Assembly: GCA_000091205.1 (NCBI GenBank) | Contig: AP006497.2 | DNA: 64,000 nucleotides | Source of the DNA: Cyanidioschyzon merolae | Lineage: Eukaryota | Direction: 5' to 3' (one strand) | In this document: positions 2,153 to 64,000 of the stretch, one piece after another | Position numbering within the stretch: position 1 is the first letter of the stretch | Layout of the letters: each line of letters begins with the position of its first letter | Program-made: the position numbers and the translations under genes | The notes under the pieces: generated by a model | The model's input: the letters and a program-made list of their open reading frames with translations, nothing else | The model's database searches: none | What the model was told of the DNA's origin: nothing

Positions 2153-2342
2153 CCGCGCGATGACGCACGATGCTCCAAATCGTCGCCCGCTCTACTCGTG
2201 CACTGGTGATACGACAAGAGGCGCTGAGTCGGAGACCGAGAAGCATAGCCATTGACTGCGCCTACGCAAAAACCTCTTGGGACTTTATCCTTTTCTCGAG
2301 CACCTTCCTGGAATAAAGCTGCTGTTGAACAGTTACGAAAGG

Positions 2343-4145
2343 ATGGTGGTTCTCGCGATCGCTATTTTGAACAAGCTCGGCCGGCTACTGATTTCTCGTC
2401 AGTTTCGTGAGATGCAGCGGACCCGCGTCGAAGGTCTACTCGCCGCTTTTCCGAAACTTTTGGAAAACGAGATGACACGGAGTGGGGAGAATCGCCAACA
2501 CACGTTCCTCGAGTCGGACACGGTTCGCTACGTATACCAGCCAGTGGAAAATCTCTATGTGGTGTTAATCACGAACAAGACGAGCAATATCGTCCAAGAT
2601 CTTGAGACGCTTCGTTTGGTCAGCAAGTTGCTCGCAGAGCTCAGCCCGATCGTGGGAGTGATCGATGAAACCGCCGTATACGAAGCAGCTTTCGACTTGA
2701 TCTTTGCCTTTGATGAGGTCATCGACTGGGGCGGCTACGCAGAGGCCGTGAACGTGCCTCAGATTCGTCAGTATCTCGAAATGTATAGCCACGAGGAGCG
2801 CTTAGCAAAAATGATCAAAGAGAGCAAAATGCATGAGGCGAAAGAGGAGATGCGTCGAAAGGCGAATCTCATTGAGAAACAGAAGCAAGACCTTGCGAAA
2901 CTGCCGCCCGAGATACGACGCCTCATGGGCCTTGAAGGGAGCTCAGTTTCGGCAGGCTCTGGCGCGCCTGCAGTGTCTACCGGTGCGTATTCAACGGGGA
3001 ATATGCGAGGATTCGGGCCCCAAGACTTTTCTGGTGCTCTCGGAGGCAGCACTCTGCTTGGCGATGTTGGACCTGCTCCGTCCTTGACGCTGGGCGCCAC
3101 CAGAATAGCAGCGGACCAGTCGGCAAGCATCACGGTTTCAGCCGGAGGCCGGGGTCTGTCTCTCGGGAAGCCAAAGGCTCGCACCGAGGACTGGATGGCG
3201 CACCTGCATGCTGAGAGTGAAACATCTTCCGCAGATGCGCAACGCTCGCGCGTTACTCCCGATCATACGGAGCCTACAGCGTCGCAACGAGCTGCGAAGA
3301 CAGTCCCGTCCGAATCCGCCACTCGAGCGGTTGCAACATCTTCAATCCCTGCGTCTGATTTCCATCTAACGACCGAGGAGAAGCTGAGTATATCACTCAC
3401 TCGTGACGGTCGACTCGAGAGCTTTCAAGTACACGGCGAGCTTCTCCTTCAGATACGCGATCAAAAGCGGGCACACGCTCGCATCCGGCTGAAACCGCTT
3501 CCGGAATCGATGATGCAAAAGGTGCAGCTGCGACTGCATCCGATGTTGGATCGTTCGCTTTGGCAACAGTCGTGGGTGCTCGCACAACGCAACGCGGAGC
3601 GCCCGTTTCCCTATGGTAGCCCGACGCCAATGAGCCTGATCAAGTGGCGTTTTCAGTCCACTGATGAGAGTCTGCTGCCTGTGCTTCTGACCTGTTGGCC
3701 AACAGTCTCCAGTGATGAGACGTCGATGACGATCGAGTATGAGATGATGTCTCGCGCATCGGTTTCCTCAGACTTGTGTCCTCCGTCATCGCTGTCTTCC
3801 GTGCAGGTGCACGTACCGTTGCCGCGAACAGCAGTACAGCCTGGATTCTTCCAGTTGACACGTGTGGACGGCCGTGCAACGCTGGATGAAGCCGCCGCTG
3901 CCGTGCTTTGGACGTTGCCTCCGCTGGAGGCGCCCTGTAGCGGTGCGCTAGAGTTTACGATTGCAGCTGTAGAAAATCCCGAGCGTATGTTTCCGATTCA
4001 AATACAGATATCGGCCACAGAGGTTTATACGAAGCTTGAAATTTTGCGGGTGGAGGTGGCGACATCCCCAGAGTCGGTGCCAACGGAGGAGACGGCGTTC
4101 ACGCAGGAGCATCGCCTGCTCACCGATCGATTCGAGATTGTATGA
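2343..4145 (+). CDS. Coatomer (COPI) delta subunit (delta-COP)
   Basis: The N-terminal longin-like region MVVLAIAILNKLGRLLISRQF...QHTFLESDTVRYVYQPVENLYVVLITNKTSNIVQDLETLRLVSKLL is colinear with metazoan and fungal delta-COP. The C-terminal mu-homology-domain-length tail is present. The track starts at TTG 2277; the first in-frame ATG is 2343 (MVVLAIA). Confidence 0.85.
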   Translation: MVVLAIAILNKLGRLLISRQFREMQRTRVEGLLAAFPKLLENEMTRSGENRQHTFLESDTVRYVYQPVENLYVVLITNKTSNIVQDLETLRLVSKLLAELSPIVGVIDETAVYEAAFDLIFAFDEVIDWGGYAEAVNVPQIRQYLEMYSHEERLAKMIKESKMHEAKEEMRRKANLIEKQKQDLAKLPPEIRRLMGLEGSSVSAGSGAPAVSTGAYSTGNMRGFGPQDFSGALGGSTLLGDVGPAPSLTLGATRIAADQSASITVSAGGRGLSLGKPKARTEDWMAHLHAESETSSADAQRSRVTPDHTEPTASQRAAKTVPSESATRAVATSSIPASDFHLTTEEKLSISLTRDGRLESFQVHGELLLQIRDQKRAHARIRLKPLPESMMQKVQLRLHPMLDRSLWQQSWVLAQRNAERPFPYGSPTPMSLIKWRFQSTDESLLPVLLTCWPTVSSDETSMTIEYEMMSRASVSSDLCPPSSLSSVQVHVPLPRTAVQPGFFQLTRVDGRATLDEAAAAVLWTLPPLEAPCSGALEFTIAAVENPERMFPIQIQISATEVYTKLEILRVEVATSPESVPTEETAFTQEHRLLTDRFEIV

Positions 4146-16469: not shown

Positions 16470-17411
16470 TCACGCTGTGAACCAAGCACTCGTTGCTGAT
16501 GGCTTCTTCTCGCCAAGCTGTGCCACAAGTTGCTCGCGCAGAATGGGATACATAGCAACTGCAGCCTGTTGCGCACAGCAAAATGCCTTTGAGAAGCTCT
16601 CCGGAGCACGAATATCGTCGACTGTGCTGTCATCCCGACGTCGTTGGCTCGTGGCACCACGCCACTGCAGATCTGCAGTTAGGCCCAGATTCGGCAACAG
16701 AGCAACCCATAGACGCCCTTCGTGGGCGCTGGCTTCCTCTTCCGATGTTGGAAAAGCGATGCAGGTCTGCTCTGTGCCTGCATACCCCGGTGTCGCGTTA
16801 ACGGCGACAGAGACGCCGACAAGTGCATCAACGAGCGCGACCCCGGCATCTAGACAAGCGGCCCAGGCCGCGGTTGTTGCAAGCGCAAGTTCACTGCCAC
16901 CCTCCTCCAGAACCCAGATATATACCCAGAACTGTAGTCGTGGGTATTCAGTGCGAGCGATGACACACTCGAGGGAGCGCGTTAGCGCCGCTGCGAACCT
17001 TCGCTCCGTTTCGCTGAGCGTAGCGCGTCCGCGCGAGGGTGCCCAGCGCTGCTCGTCCGATTCTCCACCGGCAAACTGGAGTCCAGTGGATATCGTATCT
17101 GATTCTAGCGTCTGTATTGATAACGGGCGGCTTGAGAGCCCCTGGCGGTACTCCACGACCACGGTTGCCAGCTCAGTGTCGGTGTCGGTGCTCCCCTGGG
17201 GCGGCCGCGGTCCGAATACCGCAGCCACGACTTTTGTCTTCCCTAACTGGCAAACAGCGCTGCCCTCGGGCCTGGAAAGAACGCCCAACTGGCAGCGGAA
17301 CGACTTCATCGCATACTTACGTACTTGGCACGCGTCCTTGAAGGCACGGCGAAGGCCTGGAGCGCTATGTACTTGGGCGGCGGTTGGTACAACCACGAGC
17401 ATTTTTTTCAT
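16470..17411 (-). CDS. Exosome complex RNase PH-like subunit (Rrp41/Mtr3 family)
   Basis: ATG at 17411. GLRRAFKDACQVRKY...FRCQLGVLSRPEGSAVCQLGKTKVVAAVFGPRPP matches the RNase PH-domain N-terminal consensus (DGR..ELR...G.L..ADGSA..E.GNTKV.aaV.GP). Confidence 0.7.
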   Translation of the reverse strand: MKKMLVVVPTAAQVHSAPGLRRAFKDACQVRKYAMKSFRCQLGVLSRPEGSAVCQLGKTKVVAAVFGPRPPQGSTDTDTELATVVVEYRQGLSSRPLSIQTLESDTISTGLQFAGGESDEQRWAPSRGRATLSETERRFAAALTRSLECVIARTEYPRLQFWVYIWVLEEGGSELALATTAAWAACLDAGVALVDALVGVSVAVNATPGYAGTEQTCIAFPTSEEEASAHEGRLWVALLPNLGLTADLQWRGATSQRRRDDSTVDDIRAPESFSKAFCCAQQAAVAMYPILREQLVAQLGEKKPSATSAWFTA

Positions 17412-17696
17412 TTTTTCTCGATTTCACGAGATGTTGACATAGGCCAGCGTTCCTCGACGGTGCGCCTGATATCAGCGCGCGGTAAAGCATCCATTGATCC
17501 AACTACTTCCAGGTTCAATATTCTATACTTCATCTCGGATATACTAGTCGTCTCATACGTACTATCGTGTGCCGCGTGCCTGGCGTAATCGTCCGCGATA
17601 TAGCGCCCGTACCGTCGGTGCGGATGCAGCACGGAGACAGAACGACTCTGGCGCGCCCCAGAGTGCGTCAGCTCGAGCGCGTAAACTGATACCCAC

Positions 17697-18053
17697 TCAC
17701 TGGCGCTTCTCCGGTTTTGTTGACCCGCAGACTGCAGTCGGTTTCAGTTTGTCCTGGCAAACTTCGAGACTGGAAGGCTGCCCCACGAAGATGGCTAGCA
17801 TCAGCTCCGCAGGTCTTTTCTTCAGCACTGCACATCGCCTGATATTGATGGCGGTATTAAAGCCCCGGCTAGAGAATTCCATGTGTTGATTGTCGCTGGT
17901 GGAACTCATGAATGCGAGAATTGCGAGAACTCGTGCCCGCTGTGCCGTTTTCTGCTCTGTAAGCGCCACCTGCTTTTCTATCGTTGAGGCACTCCGCTGG
18001 CTTTTCTCCATCTCGAATTTCTGAAGTGTGCGCCCCAGCTCATCCCTCGGATT
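17697..18053 (-). pseudogene. Decayed 3'-terminal relic of a TnpB/Fanzor-like (RuvC-III region) gene
   Basis: Minus-strand translation DELGRTLQKFEMEKSQRSAS...RVLAILAFMSSTSDNQHMEFSSRGFNTAINIRRCAVLKKRPAELMLAIFVGQ...KLKPTAVCGS aligns residue by residue with the C-terminus of the 38590-40557 element: HELGCTLQRVEIEKCQRGPE...RELLALVYTTSDGKKRMEFVNRDLNAAINIRRSAVMGKRPPELTGENFVGQ...KMKPVVGGQS. The catalytic Asp of RD.NAA.NI is Gly here. Both Cys are replaced (C->R, C->S). An in-frame stop lies at 18054. Confidence 0.55.
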
Positions 18054-22923: not shown

Positions 22924-23447
22924 CAGTCAGGGTAAAATCCGGTTGTTCAGTGTGTGTGAGTGTGTGGCATGCTTCATGGGATACATTGCACAAGTCGTGT
23001 GGCTTGGCGCGGTATCGTGGCCCCGATGTCGACTCGGTGACCAGCTTCGGCTGAGAAGCATCGCTCCCGGCCGCAACCGGTGCCGGCAGCGCCCTGCCCC
23101 CCGTTTCTCGAACCCGAAAGCACTGGTAATCCGCGCGTTTACCTGATCCGTCTTTCGGAGGTTACTTGGCTGCGCAAGTGCAGCCAAACAACCTCCGAAC
23201 CGCACCGTCATTGGACGTGAATCGTAACGCTGCCTCTGTTCATGCATCCCGCGTACGTGCGTCGGATGCATCCTACATGCCTCCGACACTGGATTCTTCC
23301 GACATGTGAACGCATGTCCATATACTTCAACAGTGTGTATGTGTGTGTGTCTCGATCTATGCAATTGCATCGTATATGCTTCACATGACTGCATGCCTCA
23401 TCCATGTGCATATGTTTGAACGCGAATGACCCTCTTGGGAATGCATT

Positions 23448-25676: not shown

Positions 25677-26055
25677 CAGTAGCAGCAGCCGTAGGAGTGG
25701 TCGTGCGCAAACAAACACAAACACACGAGAGAACGGTACACCCGAGAAACGTGTCGTGCGGCCACGAGTCCCAGGGAGTCGACGAGTTTCCAGCAATAGC
25801 TTTCGTCACGATCGCACCCAAAGGTAGATGTTGGCCAGCTGCGTCCAATCCTTTACAAAACCTTCACGTTTTAGACTATCCGCGTACACCGCACCGCCCT
25901 AGAGGCTGCTCGTACGCACCGCAACTCTTCCGTCGAAGCGAAAAGCACTACCACTACTACCACCACCACCAAAGAATCTCGCAGTCAAGGTGCTCGATGC
26001 AGGTACAAGTGCCCGGCGGCGCCGGCGTGCTACCCGAAAGCCTGGATCACAGCGC

Positions 26056-26089
26056 GCCTGCCTGCCTGCCTGGCTGCCTGCCTGCCTGG

Positions 26090-26124
<35 letters not shown>

Positions 26125-26182
26125 GCTGCCTGCCTGTCTGCCTGGCTGCCTGCCTGCCTGCCTGCCTGCCTGTCTGCCTGCC
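26056..26182. repeat. (CCTG)n tetranucleotide microsatellite with CTGG variants, about 127 bp
   Basis: gcctgcctgcctggctgcctgcctgcctggctgcctgcctgcc... is seen directly, between the LeuA-family gene (minus) and the VKOR gene (plus). Confidence 0.9.
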
Positions 26183-26245
26183 GGCGCGCCGCGCACCCCC
26201 GTCGCGCACAATCGCAGCAGCGATACGCTGCCGCCCCTGAATTGC

Positions 26246-27894: not shown

Positions 27895-29699
27895 CTACAC
27901 GAGCATACGCGCTTTTGACCTGCATGGATCCATGCAGTACTGGATCGTCAATGATGACACGCCCTATGTTGTCCAGATAAATGCTCGAGGCCCATAAAGG
28001 CAGGCGCCTAGCCCAAGCAGGTACCGCCTGGACATGCATGCCTCGCGAATGCTTCGTGTTTGATGAGTACACAAGTGGCGTTTCGTATGCGGCAGGCAGG
28101 TCGATGCGCTCGCTAGCCGCGGACGTTGTGCCTTATCTTCCATGTGGACGGGCGTAGAGAAAACCACACCACGTATCTCGATCGAATAGCTCGAGCTGCC
28201 TGATTCTGCGTTCAGCATGTTTCCCAGATACCATGCGCGTGAAACCGGGCTCATTGCTGAGTCCCATATGTGCTGTGCACCCGATCATGGGAGAATCCGC
28301 GCTGCGCAAAAAACTAGCCACAGTGCTTGTACGACCGCGGTGATCGAGCTTGCGCGTCATTCTCTTTCGGGGCTGGGTGATTTTGATCCATATCACCAGC
28401 GACTCGGGCACCGTTATGTGCGTAGGCGAGCACGTGACGGAAGCGATCCAGCATCGCAGCACTCGTGACTCTGTCGCTCACGTTTCCTCCGTCGATCACG
28501 TGGCTGGGTCGATTCGCGTGTGTAGCGCTTGTCCGGCGACGATGACCGGAATCGAATGGCCAGTACGATTGCTCTGGTTCCTACTCGCCGCTTTGCACCA
28601 CACCGATATAAAGAGGGCTCATAGTGTCCGTTCTGCACATGCAGTCGCCATACTCTGGCTGTCTGATTGGTTGGTTGGCTTTACGGCTGATGCGCACGGT
28701 TCAGGCAGTTGCGGTATGCGTCCCATACGCGGACTCGACCTGCGCTTGCCCTGCCCCACCGTCAAACAAATCCACGAGCATCGCATGCCTAGCGCTGCCT
28801 GCGTAACCGGGGCTACGCTCGCGGCAACGCCCGTCGGTATTTCGCATCAGGAGGCCTCCGGTGTGAAGGGCACGCGATTTCACCCCTGAATCCGATCCGG
28901 ATCCAATGTGGTACATTCGCGAGCGATACCATCCAAACAGCAAGGGAGATTGACTACATGGGATCATGCGTGCGTGGAATCCTCGGGATGCAGCAGCTGG
29001 CGTCGCGGCAACGTCCCGTTCAGCTCCAATGCAGTGCAGACGTAGCGCTGAAAGAGGCATGCCTTCGGCGAAGTCTGCTTCACCAATGCTGCGATCGCAT
29101 GTGATGAACGGGATCACTCTAGCACACGCGATGATGACTTCCTCGTACTACGCGCAACAGCAGTGACACAGGCCTGCGTTGATGACTCCAAAACACCGCT
29201 GAGAGCGCTGGAAGAACGCATGATCATGAGACGGCCATACAGATGACCCTTGTTTGACGGCAACAGGCTTCCTTTCAAAGCCATCCGTGCAATGAAACAA
29301 AATAGGATCTCTGACATGGTTTGACCCCAAACGAAGTCACCCAGAACCTCCAGTGAGGCATCGGTGTCGCGGTGCACAGCACACGCGTTGCATGTCGCAC
29401 TTTTCGGATAACGGGGTTTATCAATATTTGCGCATGATTCGCTGCACTGTATCCAGTGCTTCACATATGGATCATGCGCGCGTTCAGCGGAGAACCCGCC
29501 ATGATGGAAAAATTCCGTGAGTGCCGCACCTGGAATCCGTTTCGATATCCTCTGAAAACTTAGCCTCGTGCTCTGCACATAAAACTTAGGATGCATGGTC
29601 ATAAGCACGCATGCTAGGCTAGTCAGTAAAACAAAAAAAAAGTTTAACGTCCATGGACTAGAAGTATATCTACCCAATGCAGACGCCTCCCAGCCTTTT

Positions 29700-29850
29700 C
29701 TGACTTCCAGAATGCTATCGATTTCAGTTTCTGCTTGTACACTTCGAGCATCAGACGCTACCTCACAAGCTTCGATCGCGTCAGCTCTGCAGGTTTCCTC
29801 TTCAATACTCCACATTTCCTGATATTGATGGTAGCGGGAAGTCTTGGCAC
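29700..29850 (-). pseudogene. Second decayed relic of the TnpB/Fanzor-like family (RuvC-III tail)
   Basis: Minus-strand translation ...TDVVRVPRLPATINIRKCGVLKRKPAELTRSKLVR*RLMLEVYKQKLKSIAFWKS aligns with NRDLNAAINIRRSAVMGKRPPELTGENFVGQRLMVELYRMKMKPVVGGQS of the full copies. There is an in-frame stop, an upstream TAA, and the RD of the motif is lost. Confidence 0.45.
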
Positions 29851-30478
29851 ACGAACGACATCCGTTTATTGCCGCTGTTTGAACACATTAATCCAAGGTT
29901 CCTCGAACTCGTGCCCCGTTTACCACGAAACTCTCGTCGTCGTCTCGACGTGCGAACACTTTTTCTCGCCCATAGCCGCTATGTTTCTTCTCCTTCGTCA
30001 TTTGCGCTTCTTCGCTCGATGATAGGCAACAAGCGGATTTTTCTTTTTTTCAGGCACACGGCGACACCAAGCCCGCAGGCTCTCCGCCTTCCATGCCCAC
30101 ACCGTCGCCTTGGGTTCTGTACTTTAGAGACTTAGCGCACTTGGAACGCTTCTCCTATAAATTGCGAGAAAGCGTTGCAACGCAGGCATCCACGCGCGTG
30201 GAACCCAGCCGTGCTGAAATCGAGTGTTGCGCGTGACGGCGAACGCACGCCATGCGATGCTGCTGCTGCTGCTGCTGCACCGGTAATCTCGTACGCGACG
30301 CTAGTTTCTACGAACCAACGCGATATTCTGCTGCGCTGTTGGTTTTGGTTGCAGTTTCGTTACGTATTTTTGAGCTAGATCGAGTTTGGTTGCACCTGAA
30401 CCTCACGTCGTGATACCCTGAGCGCCGTCCGTGGTGTCCTAGGGAGAGGCCTCTCGGATTCCGTGGCTTTCACACGCC

Positions 30479-38091: not shown

Positions 38092-38589
38092 ATTTAACGC
38101 ACGGTGGAATGTTTACCAGACCCTACGCTGGACGGAAGAAGCGTTCAGGTTGTGAAGCGTACACTACTTCTCTTCGTCAAACGTGTCTACTATGCGCAAG
38201 CCTCTGCACACGTGACAAGATGCTACGAGTTACTATACGCTCCAGGGAACGCTGAACTAGAAAATATCAAAACCAGACGCCAAGCCACAGCAATGCTATG
38301 CGCTCGTAGCAAAAGAGCGCGATAGGTTGTAAAGTGACCCGGAGATCAGTTCGACGAGGGCATGCGGCGGTGCAGTCGCACCTGCGCGTATCAGCGACGG
38401 CAGGAACGGCGGCGACGATCAGAAAACGACCGATGCAGAAGCGTTGAGGGCCGCATTGCGCAGCGCCCCGGATGGTGACCTGAAGCGTTCCTCCGGAGGT
38501 GCAGGGAAATCAGTGGAATAAAATGGATATTTATGGATAGAGTGCGTCGGGATCTGATTCTTATCTTCACGAAACGATGACATCGGGAC

Positions 38590-40557
38590 CATGGATCCCC
38601 GAATTCGGAATCTATGATGGCTTTCGGGAAAGCGTCCACCATGAAGCACTTTCCTTCAAGTTCCATTACCCATACTTGCTTTCGGATAAACAGGTCTTTT
38701 CATAGGTTCCATCCAGCGGCGAATGGCTGCCTTGAGCACTCGCCGTAGCGCCTGCACCGCTCAAGCAGATGCTGCATAGAGAGTCAGAGGGGCTCTGCAA
38801 TACCACAGAGGGCGTCGGCTCGAGGCGTCATTCATTCAACCTCGACTCGACATTCATAATGAAACTGGGAGCCTGCAAGCGCTGCTGACAGACCTACTGT
38901 CTGCGGCAGCGCGAAGCAACAGACTAGGAGTCCACTGCGACCAGGGCGACGCCCAGACGCAGTAAAGCGGCGTCTAGACCCAGAATGAACTGCGTTGCGG
39001 AAGAGTTGAACAGGTCTCACGAAAGCACCTGCCACTGGAGGAAGCATAAAGCGCGACCCGGGCAGACTCGTCCAGGTCGCGGGACCTTCCGCCTAGGGGG
39101 TAAGCTTTTGACGGCATCGGAAACTTTCCCCTCGTTTCACGTCTATCGTAAAGCGGGGAAGGAATCGTTATCTCGTTGCAATGTAGTGGTACGTTGCTGT
39201 TATTTTGTCTATACGGCGCTCGACAGGCGCACCTGGAATATCTGGCGGTCACGAGACAAGACGGATATCTCGCCGTTGAAGGGAAACCCGATCGTGATCA
39301 TTTGCGTGTTGCTCTGACGTACATGTTGTGTTTGCGTTACAGTCGTGCCAAAGTACAGTATTTCATCTCGATGGTGTTTCGACCATCAAGCAACGATATT
39401 CCGGTAGTTTTCGCGCAGTTTGTATCAGAAGCGTTCAAAAAGCGTTCTTTTTCAAAAAAACAAAAAAGGAAAGTTTTGGAGAGGCAAGTCGTCGATCCCA
39501 GAGGCCAAGTGTCACCGGATGCCGGAAAAAGCGGAGAGCACTGCCGAGCCCAGAAGCACTGGAGAGGACCGCGACGCGGAAAGTGCATGAGAACGACTTG
39601 GTCGTTGGTGCAGACGCCGGACACACGAAGATCCGTAGCCATCGCGGTTCGCGAGTGTGCGGAAGATGGCATGGACGGTAACCTACGTCCGAAAGACATG
39701 CGGCTTTTGAGCTTCTCGAGAGCGAGATGCTATCGAGAATCTGGAATCATGAATGCAAGGACAAAAATCGAGACGTGGAACGCAGGAATGAAGGATCACG
39801 TGGAAGCTTCGAGCGATGTGACGAGCCGAGGAGCAGACTTTCAAACTTTTCTGAAATGCATGGAAGTTCGCGTCGCTGACTGGGAGGCGCTGTGGAAAGC
39901 GTATCCAAAGCCCCGGTGGGCTCGTCTGCGTATGCGTCTATACTGTGGGAAGCAGCGCGCATTCGCCAATTTTTTCAATCCACTGAACGCCTTGAAGGAG
40001 GACGAGGGTCAGAGGCTCCTAGTAGCGTACGGAGCAGGGCGCTGGATGACCCAAAACAGGATATACGCCAGCTCCAACAACAAGAACGTACAAGGAGCGC
40101 GCACGGCGTTTTGTCACCATACCGATAGATGCGTTCCGAACATCGTACACACACCATGAGCTGGGCTGCACGCTTCAGAGGGTCGAGATAGAAAAGTGCC
40201 AGCGGGGCCCTGAGCATTTAAAAAAGTACGGAGCGCCGACGGAAGAGCAAATGGAAAGGAGGGCAAAAGTGCGAGAGCTACTCGCATTAGTATATACAAC
40301 CAGTGATGGCAAGAAACGTATGGAATTCGTGAACCGAGACTTGAACGCCGCTATCAATATTCGGAGAAGTGCGGTGATGGGGAAAAGACCTCCAGAGTTG
40401 ACAGGAGAGAATTTTGTGGGGCAGCGTCTCATGGTCGAATTGTACAGAATGAAAATGAAGCCAGTTGTAGGTGGCCAGTCGAGCGAGACAGTGAGGCTTC
40501 GGCGTTTCAGTTGGAGACGTTTTGTGTAGGGCGCGTTTGCCGCCACTGCTGTATACC
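38590..40557 (+). mobile_element. Copy A of a ~1.97-kb TnpB/Fanzor-like (IS200/605-OrfB-related) element
   Basis: Near-identical to 48310-50278 at a constant offset of 9721 bp with no indels across about 1.9 kb. The edges are more diverged than the core. It encodes a RuvC-fold TnpB-like protein. No terminal inverted repeats are evident, as expected for IS200/605-type elements. Confidence 0.65.
39176..40529 (+). pseudogene. TnpB/Fanzor-like RuvC nuclease gene split across two overlapping frames (+1 shift between ~40045 and ~40105)
   Basis: Frame 1 (39176-40159) carries a RuvC-I-like AEDGMDGNL and downstream ...LLVAYGAGRW. Frame 2 (open from 40050) reads RRFVTIPIDAFRTSYTHHELGCTLQRVEIEKCQRG...MEFVNRDLNAAINIRRSAVMGKRP. 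That contains the TnpB block V.P.YTS..C, a zinc-ribbon-like region and the RuvC-III hallmark RD.NAA.NI. A frameshift (or recoding) is needed to join the two frames. Confidence 0.6.
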
Positions 40558-41175
40558 GCTGCGCCACCGTGTTCCCATGGAAGAGAAATTTCGAAAACTT
40601 GAAGACTGCGTGACTGGGAGCTTCTGCACACGAATTCGAGAGTATATCATTTGCTCTCCGATGCCTTGTTCGACGGCGTCGCGAATCTTCATGTTTCCCG
40701 TGGCGTATCGAACTGCAGCGGTAAAGATCCCAGGTATCCATTCCGAAAACCCGACCGAGAATCCTAAAACTACCTTTGAGTTCTCAAGTCCGTCTCTTTA
40801 TATTTCGAATGTCGACTTTGGAAATCACGGAATAAAACATTCAGAAAAAAATGCAAAGCCACGAACACAGTGCGAGCATCTCCCAATCCACTTGTAATCC
40901 AGGATTGGCGTGGTATCATCTGCGCGCTGTTGATGCAGCACTAGCACCAATACGCTGGTCTCTCAGGAACTCAAGTCGGTTGGGTCCTAAAAACCACCAG
41001 CGTGGGAGGAATTTTCATCTGTCCGTGCTAACCGCTTGGCTGTTTCTTTGAACCAGTGGCGGGAAGCAAGGCTCGGTTCACTAGGACGAGTCTAGCGGAG
41101 CGTTACGGTGCTGATCGAAAGGCCGTGCCGCTCTACCGCCGAGCACTCCGAGTTCATGTGGCTGGCTCTTTCGAC

Positions 41176-47931: not shown

Positions 47932-48309
47932 CCACGAGCAGTGCGAAAGGGCAAGTACTCGGAGCCTGGAAACACAGCGTCAGTGCCAGTTCGAGACTGA
48001 GCGACCTGCGTCCGTCTTGGTAGAGGTTTTCAACTTGGCAGGCTCGCGAAGCCGACTTTTCGGTTAAGGGACGCACTGTTGCTGCTCTTTAATCCTAACG
48101 AGAGCTTGCCTCTTCAGCAGAGACTACCGCGTTCCAATAGCCCCGCAGTAAAGTTCGTGAAGAGAATAGAGTCTGGTTTTTCACGCGGCTCTGCGGGGGT
48201 AGCGTCTACCGCTGGTGTTTTAAGAAAAAGCGGTACGATGTGTGGTTTTGGAGCAAAAGAGCATCGCGCAGCGTAGATATGTCCTCGATGACAGAACGTC
48301 TCCATTGAT

Positions 48310-50278
48310 CAGGGATCCCAGATTGCGGGATGGATTTCGGCAAGCGGGAAAGTGTTTATGAAACTGTACCCTACCTTCAAGTTCCATTACCCATACTTGC
48401 TTTCGGATATACAGGTCTTTTCATAGGTTCCATCCAGCGGCGAATGGCTGCCTTGAGCACTCGCCGTAGCGCCTGCACCGCTCAAGCAGATGCTGCATAG
48501 AGAGTCAGAGGGGCTCTGCAATACCACAGAGGGCGTCGGCTCGAGGCGTCATTCATTCAACCTCGACTCGAGATTCGTAATGAAACTGGGAGCCTGCAAG
48601 CGCTGCTGGCAGACCTACTGTCTGCGGCAGCGCGAAGCAACAGACTAGGAGTCCACTGCGACCAGGGCGACGCCCAGACGCAGTAAAGCGGCGTCTAGAC
48701 CCAGAATGAACTGCGTTGCGGAAGAGTTGAACAGGTCTCACGAAAGCACCTGCCACTGGAGGAAGCATAAAGCGCGACCCGGGCAGACTCGTCCAGGTCG
48801 CGGGACCTTCCGCCTAGGGGGTAAGCTTTTGACGGCATCGGAAACTTTCCCCTCGTTTCACGTCTATCGTAAAGCGGGGAAGGAATCGTTATCTCGTTGC
48901 TATGTAGTGGTACGTTGCTGTTATTTTGTCTATACGGCGCTCGACAGGCGCACCTGGAATATCTGGCGGTCACGAGACAAGACGGATATCTCGCCGTTGA
49001 AGGGAAACCCGATCGTGATCATTTGCGTGTTGCTCTGACGTACAAGTTGTGTTTGCGTTACAGTCGTGCCAAAGTACAGTGTTTCATCTCGATGGTGTTT
49101 CGACCATCAAGCAACGATATTCCGGTAGTTTTCGCGCAGTTTGTATCAGAAGCGTTCAAAAAGCGTTCTTTTTCAAAAAAACAAAAAAGGAAAGTTTTGG
49201 AGAGGCAAGTCGACGATCCCAGAGGCCAAGTGTCACCGGATGCCGGAAAAAGCGGAGAGCACTGCCGAGCCCAGAAGCACTGGAGAGGAGTGCGACGCGG
49301 AAAGTGCATGAGAACGACTTGGTCGTTGGTGCAGACGCCGGAAACACGAAGATCAGGAACCATCGCCGTGCGCGAGTGTGCGGAAGATGGCGTGGACGGT
49401 AACCTACGTCCGAAAGACATGCGGCTTTTGAGCTTCTCGAGAGCGAGATGCTATCGAGAATCTGGAATCATGAATGCAAGGACAAAAATCGAGACGTGGA
49501 ACGCAGGAATGAAGGATCACGTGGAAGCTTCGAGCGATGTGACGAGCCGAGGAGCAGACTTTCAAACTTTTCTGAAATGCATGGAAGTTCGCGTCGCTGA
49601 CTGGGAGGCGCTGTGGAAAGCGTATCCAAAGCCCCGGTGGGCTCGTCTGCGTATGCGTCTATACTGTGGGAAGCAGCGCGCATTCGCCAATTTTTTCAAT
49701 CCACTGAACGCCTTGAAGGAGGACGAGGGTCAGAGGCTCCTAGTAGCGTACGGAGCAGGGCGCTGGATGACCCAAAACAGGATATACGCCAGCTCCAACA
49801 ACAAGAACGTACAAGGAGCGCGCACGGCGTTTTGTCACCATACCGATAGATGCGTTCCGAACATCGTACACACACCATGAGCTGGGCTGCACGCTTCAGA
49901 GGGTCGAGATAGAAAAGTGCCAGCGGGGCCCTGAGCATTTAAAAAAGTACGGAGCGCCGACGGAAGAGCAAATGGAAAGGAGGGCAAAAGTGCGAGAGCT
50001 ACTCGCATTAGTATATACAACCAGTGATGGCAAGAAACGTATGGAATTCGTGAACCGAGACTTGAACGCCGCTATCAATATTCGGAGAAGTGCGGTGATG
50101 GGGAAAAGACCTCCAGAGTTGACAGGAGAGAATTTTGTGGGGCAGCGTCTCATGGTCGAATTGTACAGAATGAAAATGAAGCCAGTTGTAGGTGGCCAGT
50201 CGAGCGAGACAGTGAGGCTTCGGCGTTTCAGTTGGAGACGTTTTGTGTAGGGCGCGTTTGCCGCCACTGCTGTGCACC
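48310..50278 (+). mobile_element. Copy B of the ~1.97-kb TnpB/Fanzor-like element
   Basis: See copy A. It has the same two-frame gene structure and the same frameshift. About 12 substitutions relative to A cluster in 39176-39700/48897-49421, and most are non-synonymous. Confidence 0.65.
48897..50250 (+). pseudogene. TnpB/Fanzor-like RuvC nuclease gene, copy B, with the same +1 frame split
   Basis: The 327-aa frame-1 ORF differs from A at about 9 residues (for example GVDGNL vs GMDGNL). The frame-2 C-terminal part, including NRDLNAAINIRR, is identical to A. Confidence 0.6.
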
Positions 50279-50328
50279 GCTGACGACTGCTTTCGACTTT
50301 TGAAAGGCGTTTGCTAGCGGTGTAAGCG

Positions 50329-51222
50329 TTGGCGCACCTCCGGAGGACTGACACTGGGCCCGGGCGGTCATCTGTGCAACAGTCGCATGTTCTCGGTATT
50401 CTTCGCTCATATCTGCTTCGCCCGCTCACCACTCGTGGACGCAGTCACTGGCACGCAGTACCGAGCCGAGCACTCGTGGCCGTAGCAGAGCGCCCTGCTG
50501 GCCCTGGAGGCGTGCAAAAGCGCACCGAACGCGTCGTACCGAGTGAGGCCGCTCGACAGGAGCGCACTGCCCGTCTGCGTCGCGCCGTAGACCTTCCACA
50601 AAATCGCATTTATCCCTTTCTAGAGCATAAGGTTGCTGGCGAGGCCAAACGCAAGGACCTCCTGGCCGTTCTGGAGCAGGACTCGAGTCGCTTCGAAGAT
50701 GAACGAGCCATTCGTGACTGGGTTGAGTCACAGATTCAGGAAGCGATTCGGCAAGGGGCGTTCGAGCGGCTCCCGCGAGGGCCACTGCAGCTGCCGCAAC
50801 CACCACTCGGTGTCGACCTTGTCACGTATACCATGCATGGTCTTTTACAGCGGCACGGACTGCGACCTGTCTGGATAGAATGTATGCATGAAGTAGACGC
50901 CGAAGTGAAACGTATTCGTCTGGCTCTGGAACGAGCGTATCGAGCTCGAGTTGCTACCGCCGAGGACACGTCACCTGCGAGCACAGCACAACGAGCTGAG
51001 CGCTGGGAGGCAGCAGCGCGGGAGCTCCAGGAACAGATGCATCAAGTGAACCGACGAAATGATGCTTTTAATCTCATGAAACCCGAGCGCCTGGACACTG
51101 TTTTCCGACTGCGCATGCGTTGGGAGCACGAATTCATGCGCGTCAAGCAACGAGTGGAAAGCGAGTACTCAGCTGAACCGCGTAGCAGTTTAGCTCCGGA
51201 GGCAACGGACCCGAAAGCTTGA
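50329..51222 (+). CDS. DUF1992 (DnaJC28 C-terminal domain family) protein; start codon unresolved
   Basis: IRDWVESQIQEAIRQGAFERLPRGPLQL resembles the DUF1992 core (W.E..I.EA...G.FDNLPG.GKPL). The ORF opens at TTG 50329 immediately after a TAA. The first in-frame ATG falls only at about residue 165, downstream of the conserved core. Confidence 0.45.
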   Translation: MAHLRRTDTGPGRSSVQQSHVLGILRSYLLRPLTTRGRSHWHAVPSRALVAVAERPAGPGGVQKRTERVVPSEAARQERTARLRRAVDLPQNRIYPFLEHKVAGEAKRKDLLAVLEQDSSRFEDERAIRDWVESQIQEAIRQGAFERLPRGPLQLPQPPLGVDLVTYTMHGLLQRHGLRPVWIECMHEVDAEVKRIRLALERAYRARVATAEDTSPASTAQRAERWEAAARELQEQMHQVNRRNDAFNLMKPERLDTVFRLRMRWEHEFMRVKQRVESEYSAEPRSSLAPEATDPKA

Positions 51223-53427
51223 CGGTTTCATGGGATGTTTATGAACATACGGAGCGCCTTTACAATCGATAAAGGTCATAGCGGTCAAGTATCTAGTGGT
51301 CGTTGATACCGATGATATTTGCCATGGCGAGCATGATGATGAGAATGAGCATCTTCACGCGATGGATGTGCGATGCATCATACAGTAGATCATGCGTTCG
51401 TCTACGTTGATCCGATAACGCTCATGTCAAAATACAGTTCGATGGGATCGGGTAGACAAGTCAGGTGTACGTCCTTAAATTTCATCTCTTCCCATTGTAA
51501 TAAACACCAGTCCGTGTCGGAGTTTTTTGCAACTGCTCACTTGTCGTCTCCCTCGTACCGCTGGCTTTCAATTAGCTGGTACCTCCTAGTCCTGCAGCTC
51601 GGTCGCCAACTCTTGAGAACTGTTTACCGCAGCGTTCAGGTCCGGTATTCTGCTGCTTACTCCTGTTGTGCACCAATTTCGTGCACAGACAAAGGTTGCG
51701 ATCTAGGCCTCACCTGCCATGTTCATCGTTCCTGTGCACATTTTTGGTGCGCTCGTCACTGCTGTGACACTTAGTTGTGGTCAGGTGCTTCCGTGTGACC
51801 GCCGCTTACGCTTCTTTGCGCGTCACCCTGTGGCGTATAAACGCTTGCCTTATCGCTCAGTGCATGCCCTCTACGGATACGGAAGGCGTCCACAGATTCC
51901 CGCATCCGTTTCTGGAACTCGAGCCATTTCCTGCGATCCTGGGCTTGTCATCGTCAATGCTTTCGGCGAGTACACTGTCTGCTGCATGCGCTAGCGCACA
52001 CTGTCCCAGGCAATACAGGGCTTATGGAACGCAATGTTGCCCGTGATGAGAAAAGTACCGGAAGTAAAATCCAAGCCGGAGAACAAGTAAGGAAAATTCG
52101 GTCCGCCTGTCCGCCGTTCGTGCAAGGCGACGATGCACGCTCCACTGGAAGCAAGCGCTGCGATGCCTAAACCACGAGTCGAGCAACCCTTTCCACGCAA
52201 CTAGAAGAGATCGAAGCCTCTGTGAGCACATCTCACGGGGTGTATCATGCTGCCGTCGAATCCTGACTTGTCGATGGCCACACAGTCAGGATGATTTATC
52301 ATTCGATCTGAACTGATTTTTCGACCTGAAAAGTTACGGGTACTTTCTGCATGAGCTTATAGAAAAGGCCGTTAACCAGTGGCGTCCAGTTTATGCCTTG
52401 TCAATCAAGCCGCGCAAATAGCTACGCCCGCGAATTGCCCTGAAACAAAAAATTCGAAAACCTGAATCACGCGTGATTTCAGCATGCTTCTCGCAAGGAA
52501 ACAGGATGATTCGAGCCGTGTCCATATGCATCGGATTCTGATATCCATCATTTCACGAATCCTTGTTCGAAGGTTTCCAACATCCTTTTGTTTTCCATAA
52601 CGCTACAAACTCCAGCTGCAAATCACGAAAGCAACCCCTCGAAAATTCAACAGAAAACCGGTTTGCGCATTCCTGAACTCGTTATGGATGAACCTCGATG
52701 TCGAGACTGTACATCTAGCAACCATTTCAAACAAAAATAGTTATTCATAGACAGCGCATGTATCTCGGTAAACATCGATCACAGGGATCCGCGGCGCGCG
52801 CGCTCGCTCGCGCATCTGGCACAATCGATCCAAACCTGCACGCACGCGATGCCAGGAGCGATACTGCCCCGCGATTCGACGCAGCGGCGATGCGCGGATT
52901 CCCAAGCAATATATCTGGCAGGGGCGCGGAGCGTTGCCGGTTGAACGCCGCCTCGGTCGGTGTGCTGCGTGGCGAAAGGCGGCAGCATGCAGCGCAGCGC
53001 CGCCTGCGCAGCACGGGACACGTGTACGAACGCCTCCGCTGCGCATCCGTTTTTTCGCGTAGTGCCTGCTCTGGACGCTTGCTGTGACGCGTCATAGACC
53101 CTGGGGCTTGCTCTCTCTGTCTCTCTCTGTGTGTGCGCGCGCTTGGGTGTGCCCTTGTGCTGTACAACTGTCGCCGTTACGTAGGTGAGTTGTCAGACCG
53201 TTGGCACGCGTTTGTGCGCGCGCGAGTCAACTGGTGTCCGCACAACGTTTCGGGTGAGACGCGTAGAGGCTGCTGAGCGGACGCGTGTGTATCTGCAAAC
53301 CTGCCCTGCGTGGCGCCTAGACTCGCGGGAGACACGCGTCTGGAACGGTGATCGACGTGGTGGAAGGAACGCGTGGTGCTGGTGCGTGAAGCTTGCGTGT
53401 TTTTCACGAGCTGCACCTGCGTGCGGA

Positions 53428-58660: not shown

Positions 58661-60992
58661 GCAGGCACCGGGCCGACGCGCAATGGTGCAGTGTGCTTCT
58701 CACTCTATGCTCACGAGCACGCGAAGGCAACTCATGAAGCGGCAGTTTGTTTTCGAAGTGTGTTCACTCGGGGGTACGAAATCTCCGCCTCGCACTTGAT
58801 TTGACCAGGTCGAAACAGTGGGCATTATGCTGGGAGCATTCTACGCTGGAATCTGTATACCAGCACCTCATTGTTTTTGTTTGTTTTCTACCAGCTGTTG
58901 AACAAACCCGGAGTATCCTGTGGATCGGAGAATAGCTGCGGAAAGACGATACGCGGTCACTGGTGGCTTACGAAGGACCGCGTTGCTTCGGCAAGCCAAT
59001 TATTCTACTATTAGCAGGTAGGTGAAGCTCCTGTCACGCAGTCCTCATTCAGAACGTCGCGTACCTAAACCAGAACTTGATTAACTCGATGAATATGAAT
59101 GCCTCTTCCTCGATCTTTTCCACTCGATAGATTCCCCAAGAAATGCTACCGAACAAGGCTAAGGATGCAAAGTCTTCGCACCGTGGATACGACCGGTGAT
59201 TACCAGACACGAATGTACTGGAAACAAATCGCGTTTCTATGGAGGAGTATCGCGCATTGACCAAGTACCTATCGATCTCGTACCGAGTCGCTAACGCTTA
59301 CTACATGGCGGGACGGATGCTCGCCAACTGTGGGGAGCATTCACCTGCGAGAAACGATAGACCTGTCCATAGGCTGGCAAAGAGCAGCAAACCGCTGTTC
59401 AGAAAGCAGAGGCAAGGAGCCTCTACAAAAGCGTCACCCCAAGCGCCGATTTCATCCTGTGTACGCCAACCAAGCGCCAAATGCATGGGATCATTCACCA
59501 TCTCGTCCTTCATCGAAGCGATTCGTGGCTTCTGTTTCCCACATGCCTCTGTCCAGGGCGTAGAACGTGTGGCTCCCGATTACCCAGAAGCGGTCGGCGA
59601 GTAGGCAGCTGAAATCCGCGTCGAGCTGCTGTTCCTGCTAGCCTCTTCTTTCTCGGTACGTCCGGTCAAAGGAGTCTTGTTTTTCGTGAAACACCGACTC
59701 GAAGCTCACCGATCCATCAATGAGTCGTGCCCATCTGGGACACACTTCCTCGATGAATCGCTCTTCGACATGTCGTTCTTGATGTCACCTGGCCCTGAAG
59801 TGGTGTGTTGCACCTCTGGTCATGCACTGGAGGGAGTGGTATGAGGCGCCTCGGTCCACGGGCGTGCTCGCGACCGAGAAGGTAGCAAAGAGGTATTCGA
59901 CGAGTCGCACGTATGCATACTTATAGAGAAAGCAAGTTTCGGTTCTACCTCTCACCCAATAAGACTGAATCCCGACGGAAACGAACCGATGTAGAGGGTA
60001 CCGATCACGGCTATGCTACCGCGCCAGGTAGCGGGGAAGAAGAGATCGGACAAGGAAGAAAAAAGATCCTCACGAAAAGAGGACAATAGGAGGCAGGAAG
60101 GAAAAACACGTCGGATCGGAACCATCAGTTTGCTGTCGTCGTTAATGACTTGCTAATACAACACAACAACGAGAAGAATCTTTTGAAGCGTGCGATGCAG
60201 GTCGCCAGGCGCGATCGCGTAGCTTCGAACTCGACAAGTCTCGCGGAGCGTCTCCCGCCTTGCCGCGCATCGTCGAGCATCTAATCCAGGGCACCCGGAC
60301 ACCCAGCGCTGCTACCTGTCCACATGGTTCTCGGAATCTTTCGATCAAACCTTCATGCGATCATACAGTTCATGTTCACGACAGAACATGTCGTACGGTA
60401 TGATCCAAGGATCGGAAGTTTGCATACTCACACACATAGACAGTCACGCTTCCCAGTGTACCTTGAGCGGTCGCCACACCACCTCAGCGACTGGAACCTT
60501 AATAGCACAGATACCAAACAGGATCAAACCATGCCCAGCCGCTCCTACACCAGACGTCTGGGGACAGAGGCGCAAAGCAATGCTCGGATGCACGTCGCAC
60601 CCGATGACATCATCGATCTCATTCGAAACAAGGAGCATCTCACGAACGGGGCGCTCTATCCATGCGGCATACTGAAAAAATAACACAAAAAAGTAAGACA
60701 AGAAAAATGCGCATCCTCGGAGAACGCTGGCTTAAGGAAACGTTTTGTCCATGAGAAAAAAATCCATGCGGCATCATCGCGGCGGACTGCTGCACACACG
60801 TTGCGCCGAGACGCCAACGCGCCCCTGCGAATCGATCGTCGCGGATACGCCGCCGCCCGGCAGGCCGCAGCGGCGCCCGGCAGGAGATCGGATCTACGGG
60901 CGAGGCGCGGGTAGCCCGCAGGTCCCCGCAGTCGTAGCACGAGGCGTTGTCGTCACTGGTGCTGGCGAAGGTCTGCTTTCACTGGGCTCTTG

Positions 60993-62467: not shown

Positions 62468-63472
62468 TCACAGCGGATCGCAGCAGGTGTTCATACCGCA
62501 TTCAGCACTGGTTACCGACGAGGTTACATCCTCAATCAGCAACTCTTCTTGATCAACTTGATCCCAGAACCCAGCCTGTTCGAGCACGAGTTCACGTTTC
62601 AAGGCCGGACTGCGTCCGGGCGGGTGGCGCACCCGTGCGTGCACCGTCGCATGAGACACGCGCGTCTGCTCCTGGAGCAGGTTCGACGCCTCATTTCCTG
62701 TCGTCACTGCCGACGGTGTCAACTTGTCCGAAGAGCGCTCATTGATTGGTGACGCTTTCGCGCTGCGCAGCCGACGCGCCCGCGACTTGCGCGCCTGTAC
62801 AGACGGCGCTCCAGTCGTCGACGACGCGGATAAGCGCTTCGGCTCCAGCCGCTCTGTAGTGCTCGACCTCAGGTTTGACTCGGGTACCTCGGCGTTGGGC
62901 TCGAAAACGGAGCTCCCGATATTTTTTCGAAAGCGACGCTCAAACGTAACAAGCTCTTCTTCGGTGCTCGTTGGCGTGCTCAAAGAAATGATTTCGACGC
63001 TTTTGTCGCTGTCGTTTCCAGAAGGCTCTGGTGCGCCCGACGTCAACTGCCTCAGACCGTCTCCTGCCGTTATCGCGTCGACAGGTTTTCCAGGACTAAT
63101 ATTTGCTTCTAACGTCGCGTTAACCGCCTTCGTGGACGTAAGAAGGCGAGCCTTCTTGACTTGGGTCGCACGCGCCTGTGAGAGGCGCCCCCGAGCGTCT
63201 GCACCACGCTGTGCCTCGCGGTTACGCAGGTGTTCGACGTCGCCCGTCACGTCCGCCAGGGGTTGCCTGCTCCCGGCCACTCGCTTGGGAGAAGAGGGCT
63301 GCGTTGAACGGCGCTTACGGCGAGCGCGCTGCATGCTAAGCAAAACCCAACGCTGCGGATACGAGAGCCGTAGCGGAAGCCCGACAATGTCGAAGTGTGC
63401 GCGCACGGATCGCGCCAGAGCGTCCCGATGCCGAATTTGTTTTCTGTTCGACAACGGCATCTTTATACGCAT
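62468..63472 (-). CDS. Hypothetical basic, low-complexity protein
   Basis: A 354-codon ORF whose track start is GTG 63532; the first ATG is 63472. No recognisable domain. An antisense ORF of similar length (62724..63644) overlaps it, so coding status is uncertain. Confidence 0.25.
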   Translation of the reverse strand: MRIKMPLSNRKQIRHRDALARSVRAHFDIVGLPLRLSYPQRWVLLSMQRARRKRRSTQPSSPKRVAGSRQPLADVTGDVEHLRNREAQRGADARGRLSQARATQVKKARLLTSTKAVNATLEANISPGKPVDAITAGDGLRQLTSGAPEPSGNDSDKSVEIISLSTPTSTEEELVTFERRFRKNIGSSVFEPNAEVPESNLRSSTTERLEPKRLSASSTTGAPSVQARKSRARRLRSAKASPINERSSDKLTPSAVTTGNEASNLLQEQTRVSHATVHARVRHPPGRSPALKRELVLEQAGFWDQVDQEELLIEDVTSSVTSAECGMNTCCDPL

Positions 63473-64000
63473 AGAGAGAGGCTGGGAATCTTTGATGATG
63501 CGACTGGTAGCAGCTTTGAGGAAAGCATTCACCGTTCCACGCCTTAGTCGTCAGAATTCCAACACCCTTGCTTTCCCGCGGAGATACTGGTTATTCCTCG
63601 TGTTCGCTCGAGCGCCAAGTGCATCGATTGCGCGTCCACAGTGACGTCTGTAGCGCCGGTGCGGACACAGCACGAAACCAGAGCGGCTTTTGTCATGCCA
63701 CTGAGTATCTTGGCTCGAGACGGGCGCGTTTGTGCCGCTACGGGCGCTTTTTATTGAGCGCATCGACACCCTCCGGAAGGTTGCCGGACTGGATGCGGGA
63801 GAAGTGAAGCGCCCTAACCTTATGATCGTAAAATGATCAGAACTGTATAGATAGTGTTGCACCGCTTTCGTTCGCGAAGAGGACGCCTCCGCTGCCTGGT
63901 TTCTTATAGTTTTTCAACTCATTTATGTTCCAGTACCTCTGCGATATAGAGCAGGAGATCGAAATCCGGTTTTAATGTATCCTACAGATCGTAGACGAAT

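Follow-up and report, generated by a model that had tools for sequence, protein, structure and literature searches.

Does the edge of sequence identity between two nearly identical transposon copies mark the end of the element, and does a guide sequence begin there? This question is raised by a 64,000-nt stretch of Cyanidioschyzon merolae DNA (contig AP006497.2, hereafter the window), in which two copies of a Fanzor1 nuclease gene, copy A and copy B, share a long block that breaks off shortly after the stop codon. The original prediction placed an ωRNA-like 3' region at the break in copy A, with the right end of the element at ~40557-40575, and took the diverging sequences beyond it for copy-specific, flank-derived guides. 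Our analysis indicates that the edge of A/B identity is very probably not the right end and that the proposed guides were misassigned. Family homology extends further, through a module of two hairpins that, by analogy with known Fanzor1 (Fz1) ωRNAs, is probably the ωRNA scaffold of the C. merolae Fanzor1 family.

Copy A adjoins a ChlH open reading frame (ORF) of 1424 aa with 100% identity to the magnesium chelatase H protein of C. merolae 10D (BAM81565.1 / XP_005537601.1). Self-BLAST and ungapped comparison revealed 19 mismatches between copies A and B over 1909 bp (99.0% identity); all of them are substitutions, and none falls between 39672 and 40552 (Table 1). As originally described, TGTGTAG closes both reading frames (at 40529 and 50250), and identity continues through GGCGCGTTTGCCGCCACTGCTGT (40530-40552 / 50251-50273). 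The following two positions, 40553-4, read AT in A and GC in B, after which seven matches, ACCGCTG, carry the comparison to 40561 / 50282. This divergence with its residual match had also been noted correctly: a global alignment of the next 79 nt of the two copies was equalled or beaten by 617 of 1000 shuffles, i.e., no significant similarity follows. The block is not an assembly artefact, because independent metagenome contigs (~99% identity) carry copy A beside the same ChlH gene and copy B with its own flank. All A-side contigs contain the element. An empty B site was sought via the adjoining tRNA-methyltransferase-like gene, and no record of that protein was found.

To locate the 3' end of the family, 80 related loci were taken and ~55 non-redundant 3' ends were aligned. 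Homology persists for 58-72 nt past the stop codon and then gives way to unrelated flanks, mean pairwise identity being 0.63-0.85 up to ~+60 nt and 0.25-0.35 thereafter. Divergence begins at +58 and +62 in two very recent copy pairs, and other subfamilies share sequence to ~+72; the right end is thereby bracketed at +58..+72, which in copy B corresponds to 50308-50324. The post-stop family consensus reads TAG GGCGGGTTTCTCGCC ACTACTGTA CACCGTTGGCGTCGTTCGA CTT TCGAACGGCGTTGATGGTG. An element end 25-45 bp past the stop, as had been read from the decay of A/B identity, falls short of this range, and a right end at ~40557-40575 is contradicted by copy B, which follows the family consensus ~40 nt further, to ~50322-50324.

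Single-sequence folds of this stretch reveal, in most copies and on the ORF strand, two hairpins: SL1, which includes the stop codon, and the terminal SL2. SL1 (TAGGGCGGG-UUU-CUCGCC.CUA) consists of a 6-bp core and 3 bp that include the stop codon, while SL2 comprises 17-25 bp and displays compensatory variants, e.g., TTCTAC/TAGAA and TTTTTC/GAAAG. Beyond SL2 the flanks are unrelated between copies, although the border of element and flank is blurred by GGTG (the complement of CACC at the foot of the hairpin), which is enriched next to the element end: 26 of 38 copies compared with 6 of 38 in a control segment. A covariance model, built from a hand-defined structure, six gap-free seeds and Infernal realignment, matches 40 copies at E<5e-6. 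Run unfiltered on the window, it detected only copy B (55.8 bits, 50231-50322) and a truncated copy A (36.3 bits, 40510-40571).

In copy B the module is complete (50248-50324) and folds at -31.2 kcal/mol in RNAfold (z = -2.1). Position 50282, at which the 99% block stops, is the final base in the outer 5' arm of B's SL2; the diverging GCACCGCTGACGACTGCTT is therefore part of the SL2 5' arm, and gcaccgctgacgactgctt, the guide assigned to B, belongs to a conserved hairpin rather than to the flank. Copy A breaks off just inside the same arm. Its positions 40558-40603 match 52421-52466, part of a different repeat that we call fam2, at 33 of 46 sites (0 of 1000 shuffles as high), and the homology runs on to 40890. 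Because copy A is homologous to fam2 from 40558 on, the diverging ATACCGCTGCGCCACCGTG is a rearrangement junction, as is the guide assigned to A, ataccgctgcgccaccgtg. The residual ACCGCTG represents the first bases of the SL2 5' arm (family consensus CACCGCTGGCG), and in the model alignment 35 SL2 positions of A are replaced by 12 nt, leaving the copy without SL2. A 3' arm for this orphan 5' arm was considered at ~40713-40722 and rejected, as that sequence aligns within the fam2 homology. SL1 has the same 22-nt sequence in A and B, and RNAfold forms it in B; in A's own 79-nt context, the minimum-energy fold lacks SL1 and shows no excess folding over shuffles (z = -0.06). The interval flagged originally, 40480-40600, is thus a pseudogene tail, an intact SL1, a breakpoint and a piece of another repeat. 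Searches with the proposed guides and with B's flank gave no second match in the window.

Covariation and folding were then assessed over the family copies. On the model alignment 87% of cells are paired, compared with 31-50% in controls with slid partners. In this model-fitted alignment of related copies, 15 of the 31 pairs have changed on both sides, giving 37 compensatory cells against 14.0 +/- 3.2 in shuffles, a count reached by none of 500. The sense strand folds better than the antisense (-26.4 vs -20.2 kcal/mol, p = 2.7e-7), and the stems contain many G.U pairs. When the consensus was allowed to decay neutrally in simulation, with an equal number of random substitutions, the real copies proved 3.05 kcal/mol more stable on average (29 of 38 copies, p = 2e-5). 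The codon-position signature fades over the last ~80 nt of the ORF. Stems proposed within the last 100 nt of the ORF (CCGGTC/GACGGG, GGCGTCT/AGACGT, AGAC/GTCT) were rejected: they are mostly invariant, their changes break pairs, and they contain zero compensatory changes.

The gene preceding the module is broken in both copies. Translation of copy A passes through frames 1->2->3->1, with junctions near 39320, 39630 and 40050, i.e., at least three frameshifts. The RuvC-I Asp (39613-39615), the RuvC-III Asp (40338-40340) and the stop codon (40527-40529) are present, while an Ala codon, GCG, at 40131-40133 occupies the position of the family's invariant catalytic Glu (IDAFRTS in A and B, VDEFRTS in the family). 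The RuvC triad of Asp, relocated Glu and Asp (D421, E592, D658) is invariant in 75 relatives, and from its motif position we infer that the family Glu corresponds to E467 of ApmFNuc (PMC10530073). Relative to homologues of 590-700 aa, A and B lack ~250-300 N-terminal residues and have no continuous ORF; the 92-aa ORF at 40251-40529 is the final fragment of the frameshifted gene. What had been presented as two ORFs therefore has correctly placed ends, and the frames themselves are gene fragments, not intact genes. Because of the frame breaks and the Ala at the catalytic Glu, A and B are two copies of one dead gene. More than half of the A/B differences (10 of 19) cluster in 39569-39671 (B: 49290-49392), a ~100-nt region that surrounds the first frameshift junction and the RuvC-I motif, where neither copy is consistently nearer the family majority.

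A search with the stitched translation returned 153 close homologues (58-80% identity), some of them intact at 560-700 aa, and the family comprises >538 metagenome loci, with 2399 representatives at E<=1e-3. An AlphaFold2 (AF2) model of family member P0112 reached a predicted local distance difference test score (pLDDT) of 88.9 and a predicted template modelling score (pTM) of 0.87 once distant representatives had been added; an earlier model from 36 close sequences (pLDDT 44) was unusable. The top seven structural matches of the P0112 model are all SpuFz, PpFz and GtFz (E 2.5e-17 to 8e-16, TM 0.63/0.72), a comparison that tests this family member and not the broken copies A and B; matches to Cas12 and TnpB structures are far weaker (E>=4e-5). 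The predicted fold supports the assignment of the element family to Fanzor1. Sequence profiles gave little: Pfam returned sub-threshold Cas12f1-like_TNB matches only (E 0.0068 for A, 6e-4 to 2e-3 in 3 of 10 relatives) and no match for three close full-length members, and a PDB sequence search of the family proteins produced no significant match. The CxxC...CxxC zinc-finger cysteines usual in the TNB domain of TnpB and Fanzor are missing from the family consensus (window 40137-40165 and ~40290-40320), which reads TSYTHHELGC ... LLALVSTT at these sites, or LLWCxST in the wider family. The linker before RuvC-I contains tandem ~75-nt repeats encoding KHEEKKEA-type repeats (L008 2589-3043 and the corresponding part of family ORFs), variable in copy number among members. 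Of the original proposal of an ωRNA-like 3' region, then, a conserved structured post-stop module on the ORF strand and the Fanzor identity of the element have stood, while the right end and the guides have not.

If the block edges are not transposon ends on the right, the left edge should be considered as well. The 99% block begins at 38653, ~105 bp inside a 5' module (LE) of ~290 bp, and there is no break at that position in the solo or family LE modules. A hidden Markov model (HMM) of LE, built from four window copies, found 45 sharply delimited occurrences in the family loci, in either orientation. The outer LE parts of A and B, to the left of the block, are 56% identical and clearly homologous (1 of 1000 shuffles as high). 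The 99% block is thus nested inside older, diverged copies, and because of this nesting neither edge marks a transposon end; rather than a whole element, the block is a conversion or duplication tract. In the most economical reading, A and B are old diverged copies in which 1.9 kb was recently homogenised by ectopic gene conversion or recombination, and the right limit of the tract would be set by the breakpoint in A. A recent transposition of a 1.9-kb truncated derivative with true ends at 38653 and 40561 would account for the sharp edges on both sides and for the 99% identity, but we regard it as very improbable: both copies continue leftwards into the same LE module, the right edge coincides with the rearrangement junction in A, and comparable mosaic identity occurs in other copy pairs. 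L037 829-3108 and L052 103-2380 are 91.8% identical over 2.28 kb, while L037 and L071, the latter apparently the same locus as L052, share 99.2% over the last 980 bp; identity between L008 1133-4019 and L018 1206-4021 is 92.9% in the final 1.35 kb, falling to 79% upstream of it. The pairs L037/L052 and L008/L018 suggest frequent conversion between copies, although they were chosen by high 3'-end identity, so that tracts reaching the 3' end may reflect ascertainment.

The LE module itself acts like an independent short mobile element, as does TE-N2_CMe: it is found alone, in either orientation, head-to-head, or right after a Fanzor right end. Examples include a weak match at 60708-60775(-), the pair L073 1954-2227(-)/2254-2526(+), and L018 4024-4153; the module starts with a (GA)T-run.

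Among described elements, the A/B family fits CMe-1A, the Fanzor1 family of C. merolae with ~150 copies at ~80% identity to a ~3-kb consensus and neither terminal inverted repeats (TIRs) nor determinable target-site duplications (TSDs) (Bao & Jurka 2013, PMC3627910); the likeness was judged from the published description. Both are multi-copy TnpB-like elements of the same organism, with copies ~20-30% diverged, full elements of ~2.4-3.4 kb and some intact ORFs. Each has a separate short 5' element, the LE module here and TE-N2_CMe there, the latter corresponding to the 5' part of CMe-1A (PMC3627910), and each lacks TIRs and determined TSDs; between the two ends of the A/B block, no convincing inverted repeat was found. 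Copies A and B differ from full CMe-1A as internally deleted, frameshifted copies of ~2 kb, and the CMe-1A report predates ωRNAs and describes no 3' structured module.

It is with such RNAs that the post-stop module invites comparison. In Fanzor systems the ωRNA is read from the same strand as the ORF, over the stretch leading from the ORF 3' end to the right end (PMC10432273, PMC10530073, PMC11423790), and Fanzor RNAs (fRNAs) derive from a conserved 3' non-coding region at the right end, with the same placement in algal and viral Fanzors (PMC10530073). SpuFz1 has a 75-nt scaffold between stop and right end plus a 14-15-nt guide (PMC10432273), and in Fz1 ωRNAs SL1 is followed by a single SL2 (SpuFz1, PpFz1) and then the guide, SL1 binding the RuvC and TNB domains (Xu 2024, PMC11423790). 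The C. merolae module, as predicted from sequence, shares with SpuFz1 and PpFz1 (Saito 2023, PMC10432273; Xu 2024, PMC11423790) an SL1, a single SL2 and variable flank at the place of the guide, and the modelled family protein matches the SpuFz fold at E ~1e-17. It differs in an SL1 predicted at 6 + 3 bp including the stop codon, compared with 7 bp, and in an unusually long SL2 of 17-25 bp. Spu-1 in addition possesses 30-nt inverted repeats and a conserved CA flank, whereas the C. merolae elements are without inverted repeats and no flank resembling a target-adjacent motif (TAM) was identified. The algal Fanzor1 CrFNuc-1 of C. reinhardtii (Jiang 2023, PMC10530073) likewise has a structured RNA in the 3' untranslated region (UTR) and extra solo copies of the RNA module; its fRNA was detected by small-RNA sequencing, whereas the C. 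merolae module is predicted from DNA and solo modules are rare. One was found in the DNA sampled, at L018 362-476: SL1 and SL2 are preceded by the last ~38 nt of the ORF (43.9 bits), and no Fanzor ORF lies upstream. This could be a 'ghost' or 5'-truncated copy, and its extent may be a clue to the start of the RNA unit. With the ωRNA/reRNA of IS200/IS605 TnpB (ISDra2), the C. merolae module would share a guide RNA whose coding stretch starts at the 3' end of the nuclease gene and extends through the right end, a flank-derived guide and a homing function. Bacterial ωRNAs overlap the ORF extensively, whereas covariation in C. merolae is confined to the post-stop part; the family is also without a TnpA partner, and the TnpB structure matches the P0112 model weakly (E 1e-3). 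Among the papers searched, none treats C. merolae Fanzor RNA.

Because position, strand, size and two-hairpin layout are the same as in Fz1 ωRNAs, the module was taken as a probable ωRNA scaffold. Several observations weigh against this reading or its details. Sequence conservation of the module (~0.7) does not exceed that of third codon positions (~0.75) and is by itself no evidence of selection. The covariation counts were obtained with related copies, in an alignment that had been fitted to the model, and the pairing excess over shuffles is modest (87.0% vs 83.5%). Variable spacers misalign SL2 in a plain MAFFT alignment of 52 3' ends, so that RNAalifold retrieved no more than 4 bp of SL1 from it. 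The stability of copy B on its own exceeds that of shuffles (z = -2.1) and of neutral simulations by a small margin only; 16% of the simulations fold as well as it does. The module has no Rfam match in the window (none at E<=1 in 50100-50400), and the ORF-internal stems show no covariation. Since the points at which the two recent pairs part (+58 and +62) lie ahead of or within the outer 3' arm of SL2, the exact right end is only bracketed. At the left end, the (GA)T-run with which LE starts could be read but no TAM-like motif. Finally, the gene conversion between A and B is read from the pattern of identity.

Against this background, the competing explanations differ in what they make of the hairpins. 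An ordinary 3'-UTR feature acting in 3'-end formation or stability, or a neutral inherited structure, in either case with no guide function, would fit a conservation equal to synonymous sites and the modest thermodynamic excess in single copies. Neither explains well the excess of compensatory cells over shuffles, a structure kept beyond the neutral-decay prediction or the close architectural match to known Fz1 ωRNAs, and the sharp stop of homology after the hairpin, in unrelated flanks, is expected of a transposon end and not of a host-type UTR; we consider this explanation unlikely. A similar judgement, that it is rather unlikely, applies to the possibility that the hairpins form a DNA-level cis element of the right end, recognised by an unknown transposase or recombinase, possibly as single-stranded DNA in the manner of IS200/IS605 or Helitron ends. 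The family's lack of TIRs and TSDs (PMC3627910), the absence of an inverted match between the two ends, the hairpin at the very end of the element and the GGTG enrichment opposite the CACC of the hairpin foot are all in its favour. The many G.U pairs and a sense fold 6 kcal/mol better than the antisense, however, fit RNA, or one DNA strand only; the post-stop layout of SL1 and SL2 is that of the solved Fz1 ωRNAs (PMC11423790); and no HUH-type transposase was seen in the Fanzor loci inspected, although no systematic search was made. A DNA end signal and a guide-RNA scaffold are not mutually exclusive.

The outer 3' arm of SL2 (GGTG...) pairs with an internal CACC, and two very recent copy pairs already differ in this arm. 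It is conceivable, if quite improbable, that the arm includes target-derived sequence, pointing to TIR-less, TSD-less insertion at sites selected because they are complementary to RNA or DNA of the element itself, or that Fanzor breaks at right ends drive the mosaic conversion tracts reaching the 3' end in A/B, L037/L052 and L008/L018. Least credible of all is the original model itself, with a right end at ~40557-40575 (50278-50296 in B) and guides in the diverging sequences. It is true that A/B identity ends at 40552-40561 and that Fanzor guides sit just past the right end (PMC10432273); yet copy B fits the family consensus and the covariance model ~40 nt past 50282, copy A continues as another repeat, and the left edge of the block is likewise internal to a conserved module. 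An explanation that combines a degenerate CMe-1-type Fanzor1 3' end, a broken module in A and a complete one in B, an ωRNA-like scaffold and a converted block is, on balance, the one we favour as a whole, with somewhat better than even confidence.

The 3' end of the Fanzor mRNA would, under the ωRNA reading, include or give rise to the scaffold, and intact copies at other genomic sites would supply the Fanzor protein that binds it. Immediately past SL2, 14-21 nt would act as the guide and direct cleavage of element-free sites, as in TnpB and Fanzor homing; in copy B this guide could start up to ~16 nt earlier than the position listed in Table 1, given the right-end bracket of 50308-50324. Copy A, because it has neither SL2 nor a native flank, would make no usable ωRNA; copy B could provide RNA only.

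Two further fragments of the family were described originally as relics retaining exactly its 3'-terminal part. Both are real and keep C-terminal coding sequence: the first matches element positions 1504-1846 at 18043-17704(-) (nhmmer E 3e-30), the second 1555-1854 at 29976-29676(-) (E 5e-20), with a second match at 1e-6. They stop at or before the stop codon, and the unfiltered covariance model found no post-stop module in either. As for the surrounding sequence, fam2, a repeat of ~1.35 kb unrelated to the Fanzor family, lacks a convincing ORF; two of its copies form a 99.3%-identical inverted pair around an adaptor-complex mu-subunit-like ORF (2277-4145). Self-comparison of the window also detected a 46-nt imperfect palindrome (23154-23199, 83%) and a short tandem duplication of 66 nt (26040-26185, 82%). 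The 64,000 nt contain no tRNAs and no Rfam families at gathering score.

Table 1. Coordinates of Fanzor1-related features and associated repeats in the window.
Feature	Position	Strand	Basis or remark
Copy A	38653-40561	+	1909-bp block, 99.0% identity to copy B (self-BLAST and ungapped comparison)
Copy B	48374-50282	+	partner of the 99% block
Fanzor1 pseudogene, copy A	38985-40529	+	three-frame translation; alignment to 12 family proteins
Fanzor1 pseudogene, copy B	48706-50250	+	same frameshifts and same Glu->Ala as A
SL1, copy A	40527-40548	+	stop TAG pairs with CTG; SL1 positions covered in model alignment
Breakpoint, copy A	40553-40558	+	Fanzor 3' module ends just inside SL2 5' arm; joined to fam2 fragment, whose homology begins at 40558 or earlier
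SL1, copy B	50248-50269	+	RNAfold, covariance model
SL2, copy B	50273-50324	+	outer arms 50273-50282 / 50315-50324, loop 50297-50299
Putative guide position, copy B	50325-50340	+	expected by analogy to SpuFz1, if the module is an ωRNA scaffold
LE (5') module, copy A	38545-38828	+	~290 bp; HMM from four window copies
LE module, copy B	48268-48549	+	HMM from four window copies
Solo LE module beside relic 1	17379-17683	+	HMM
Solo LE module	63419-63723	+	HMM
Relic 1	17697-18043	-	last ~115 codons of a diverged member; cut ~30 nt before family stop; abuts inverted LE module
Relic 2	29676-29976	-	C-terminal coding fragment, plus piece 30039-30173; ends at about the stop codon
fam2 fragment abutting copy A (3' ~330 bp)	40558-40890	+	nhmmer matches 1857-2124, 4834-4564(-), 12219-11951(-), 52426-52775
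fam2 copies	794-2152(+), 5897-4539(-), 13323-11909(-), 51479-52775(+), 40558-40890(+)		
Metagenome contig L004			carries B flank at 99%

Together, our results indicate that the window copies are ordinary degenerate copies of a known family, two dead Fanzor1 copies, one of them with a broken 3' end. The sequences flagged as guides are unsuited to target searches, and identity edges between near-identical copies in the C. merolae genome can be recombination tracts rather than transposon ends. At the level of the family, the ωRNA-like module is a plausible addition to the known Fz1 ωRNAs, by analogy of its layout. For C. merolae, a thermo-acidophilic model red alga with a single Fanzor family, it provides a concrete ωRNA candidate: SL1 and SL2 within ~70 nt past the stop, a guide expected past SL2, and a model recognising 40 copies. 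If the prediction is true, a rhodophyte, moderately thermophilic Fanzor1/ωRNA pair would join the few characterised ones, and it could help explain the presence of intact ORFs in an old family without a recognisable transposase.

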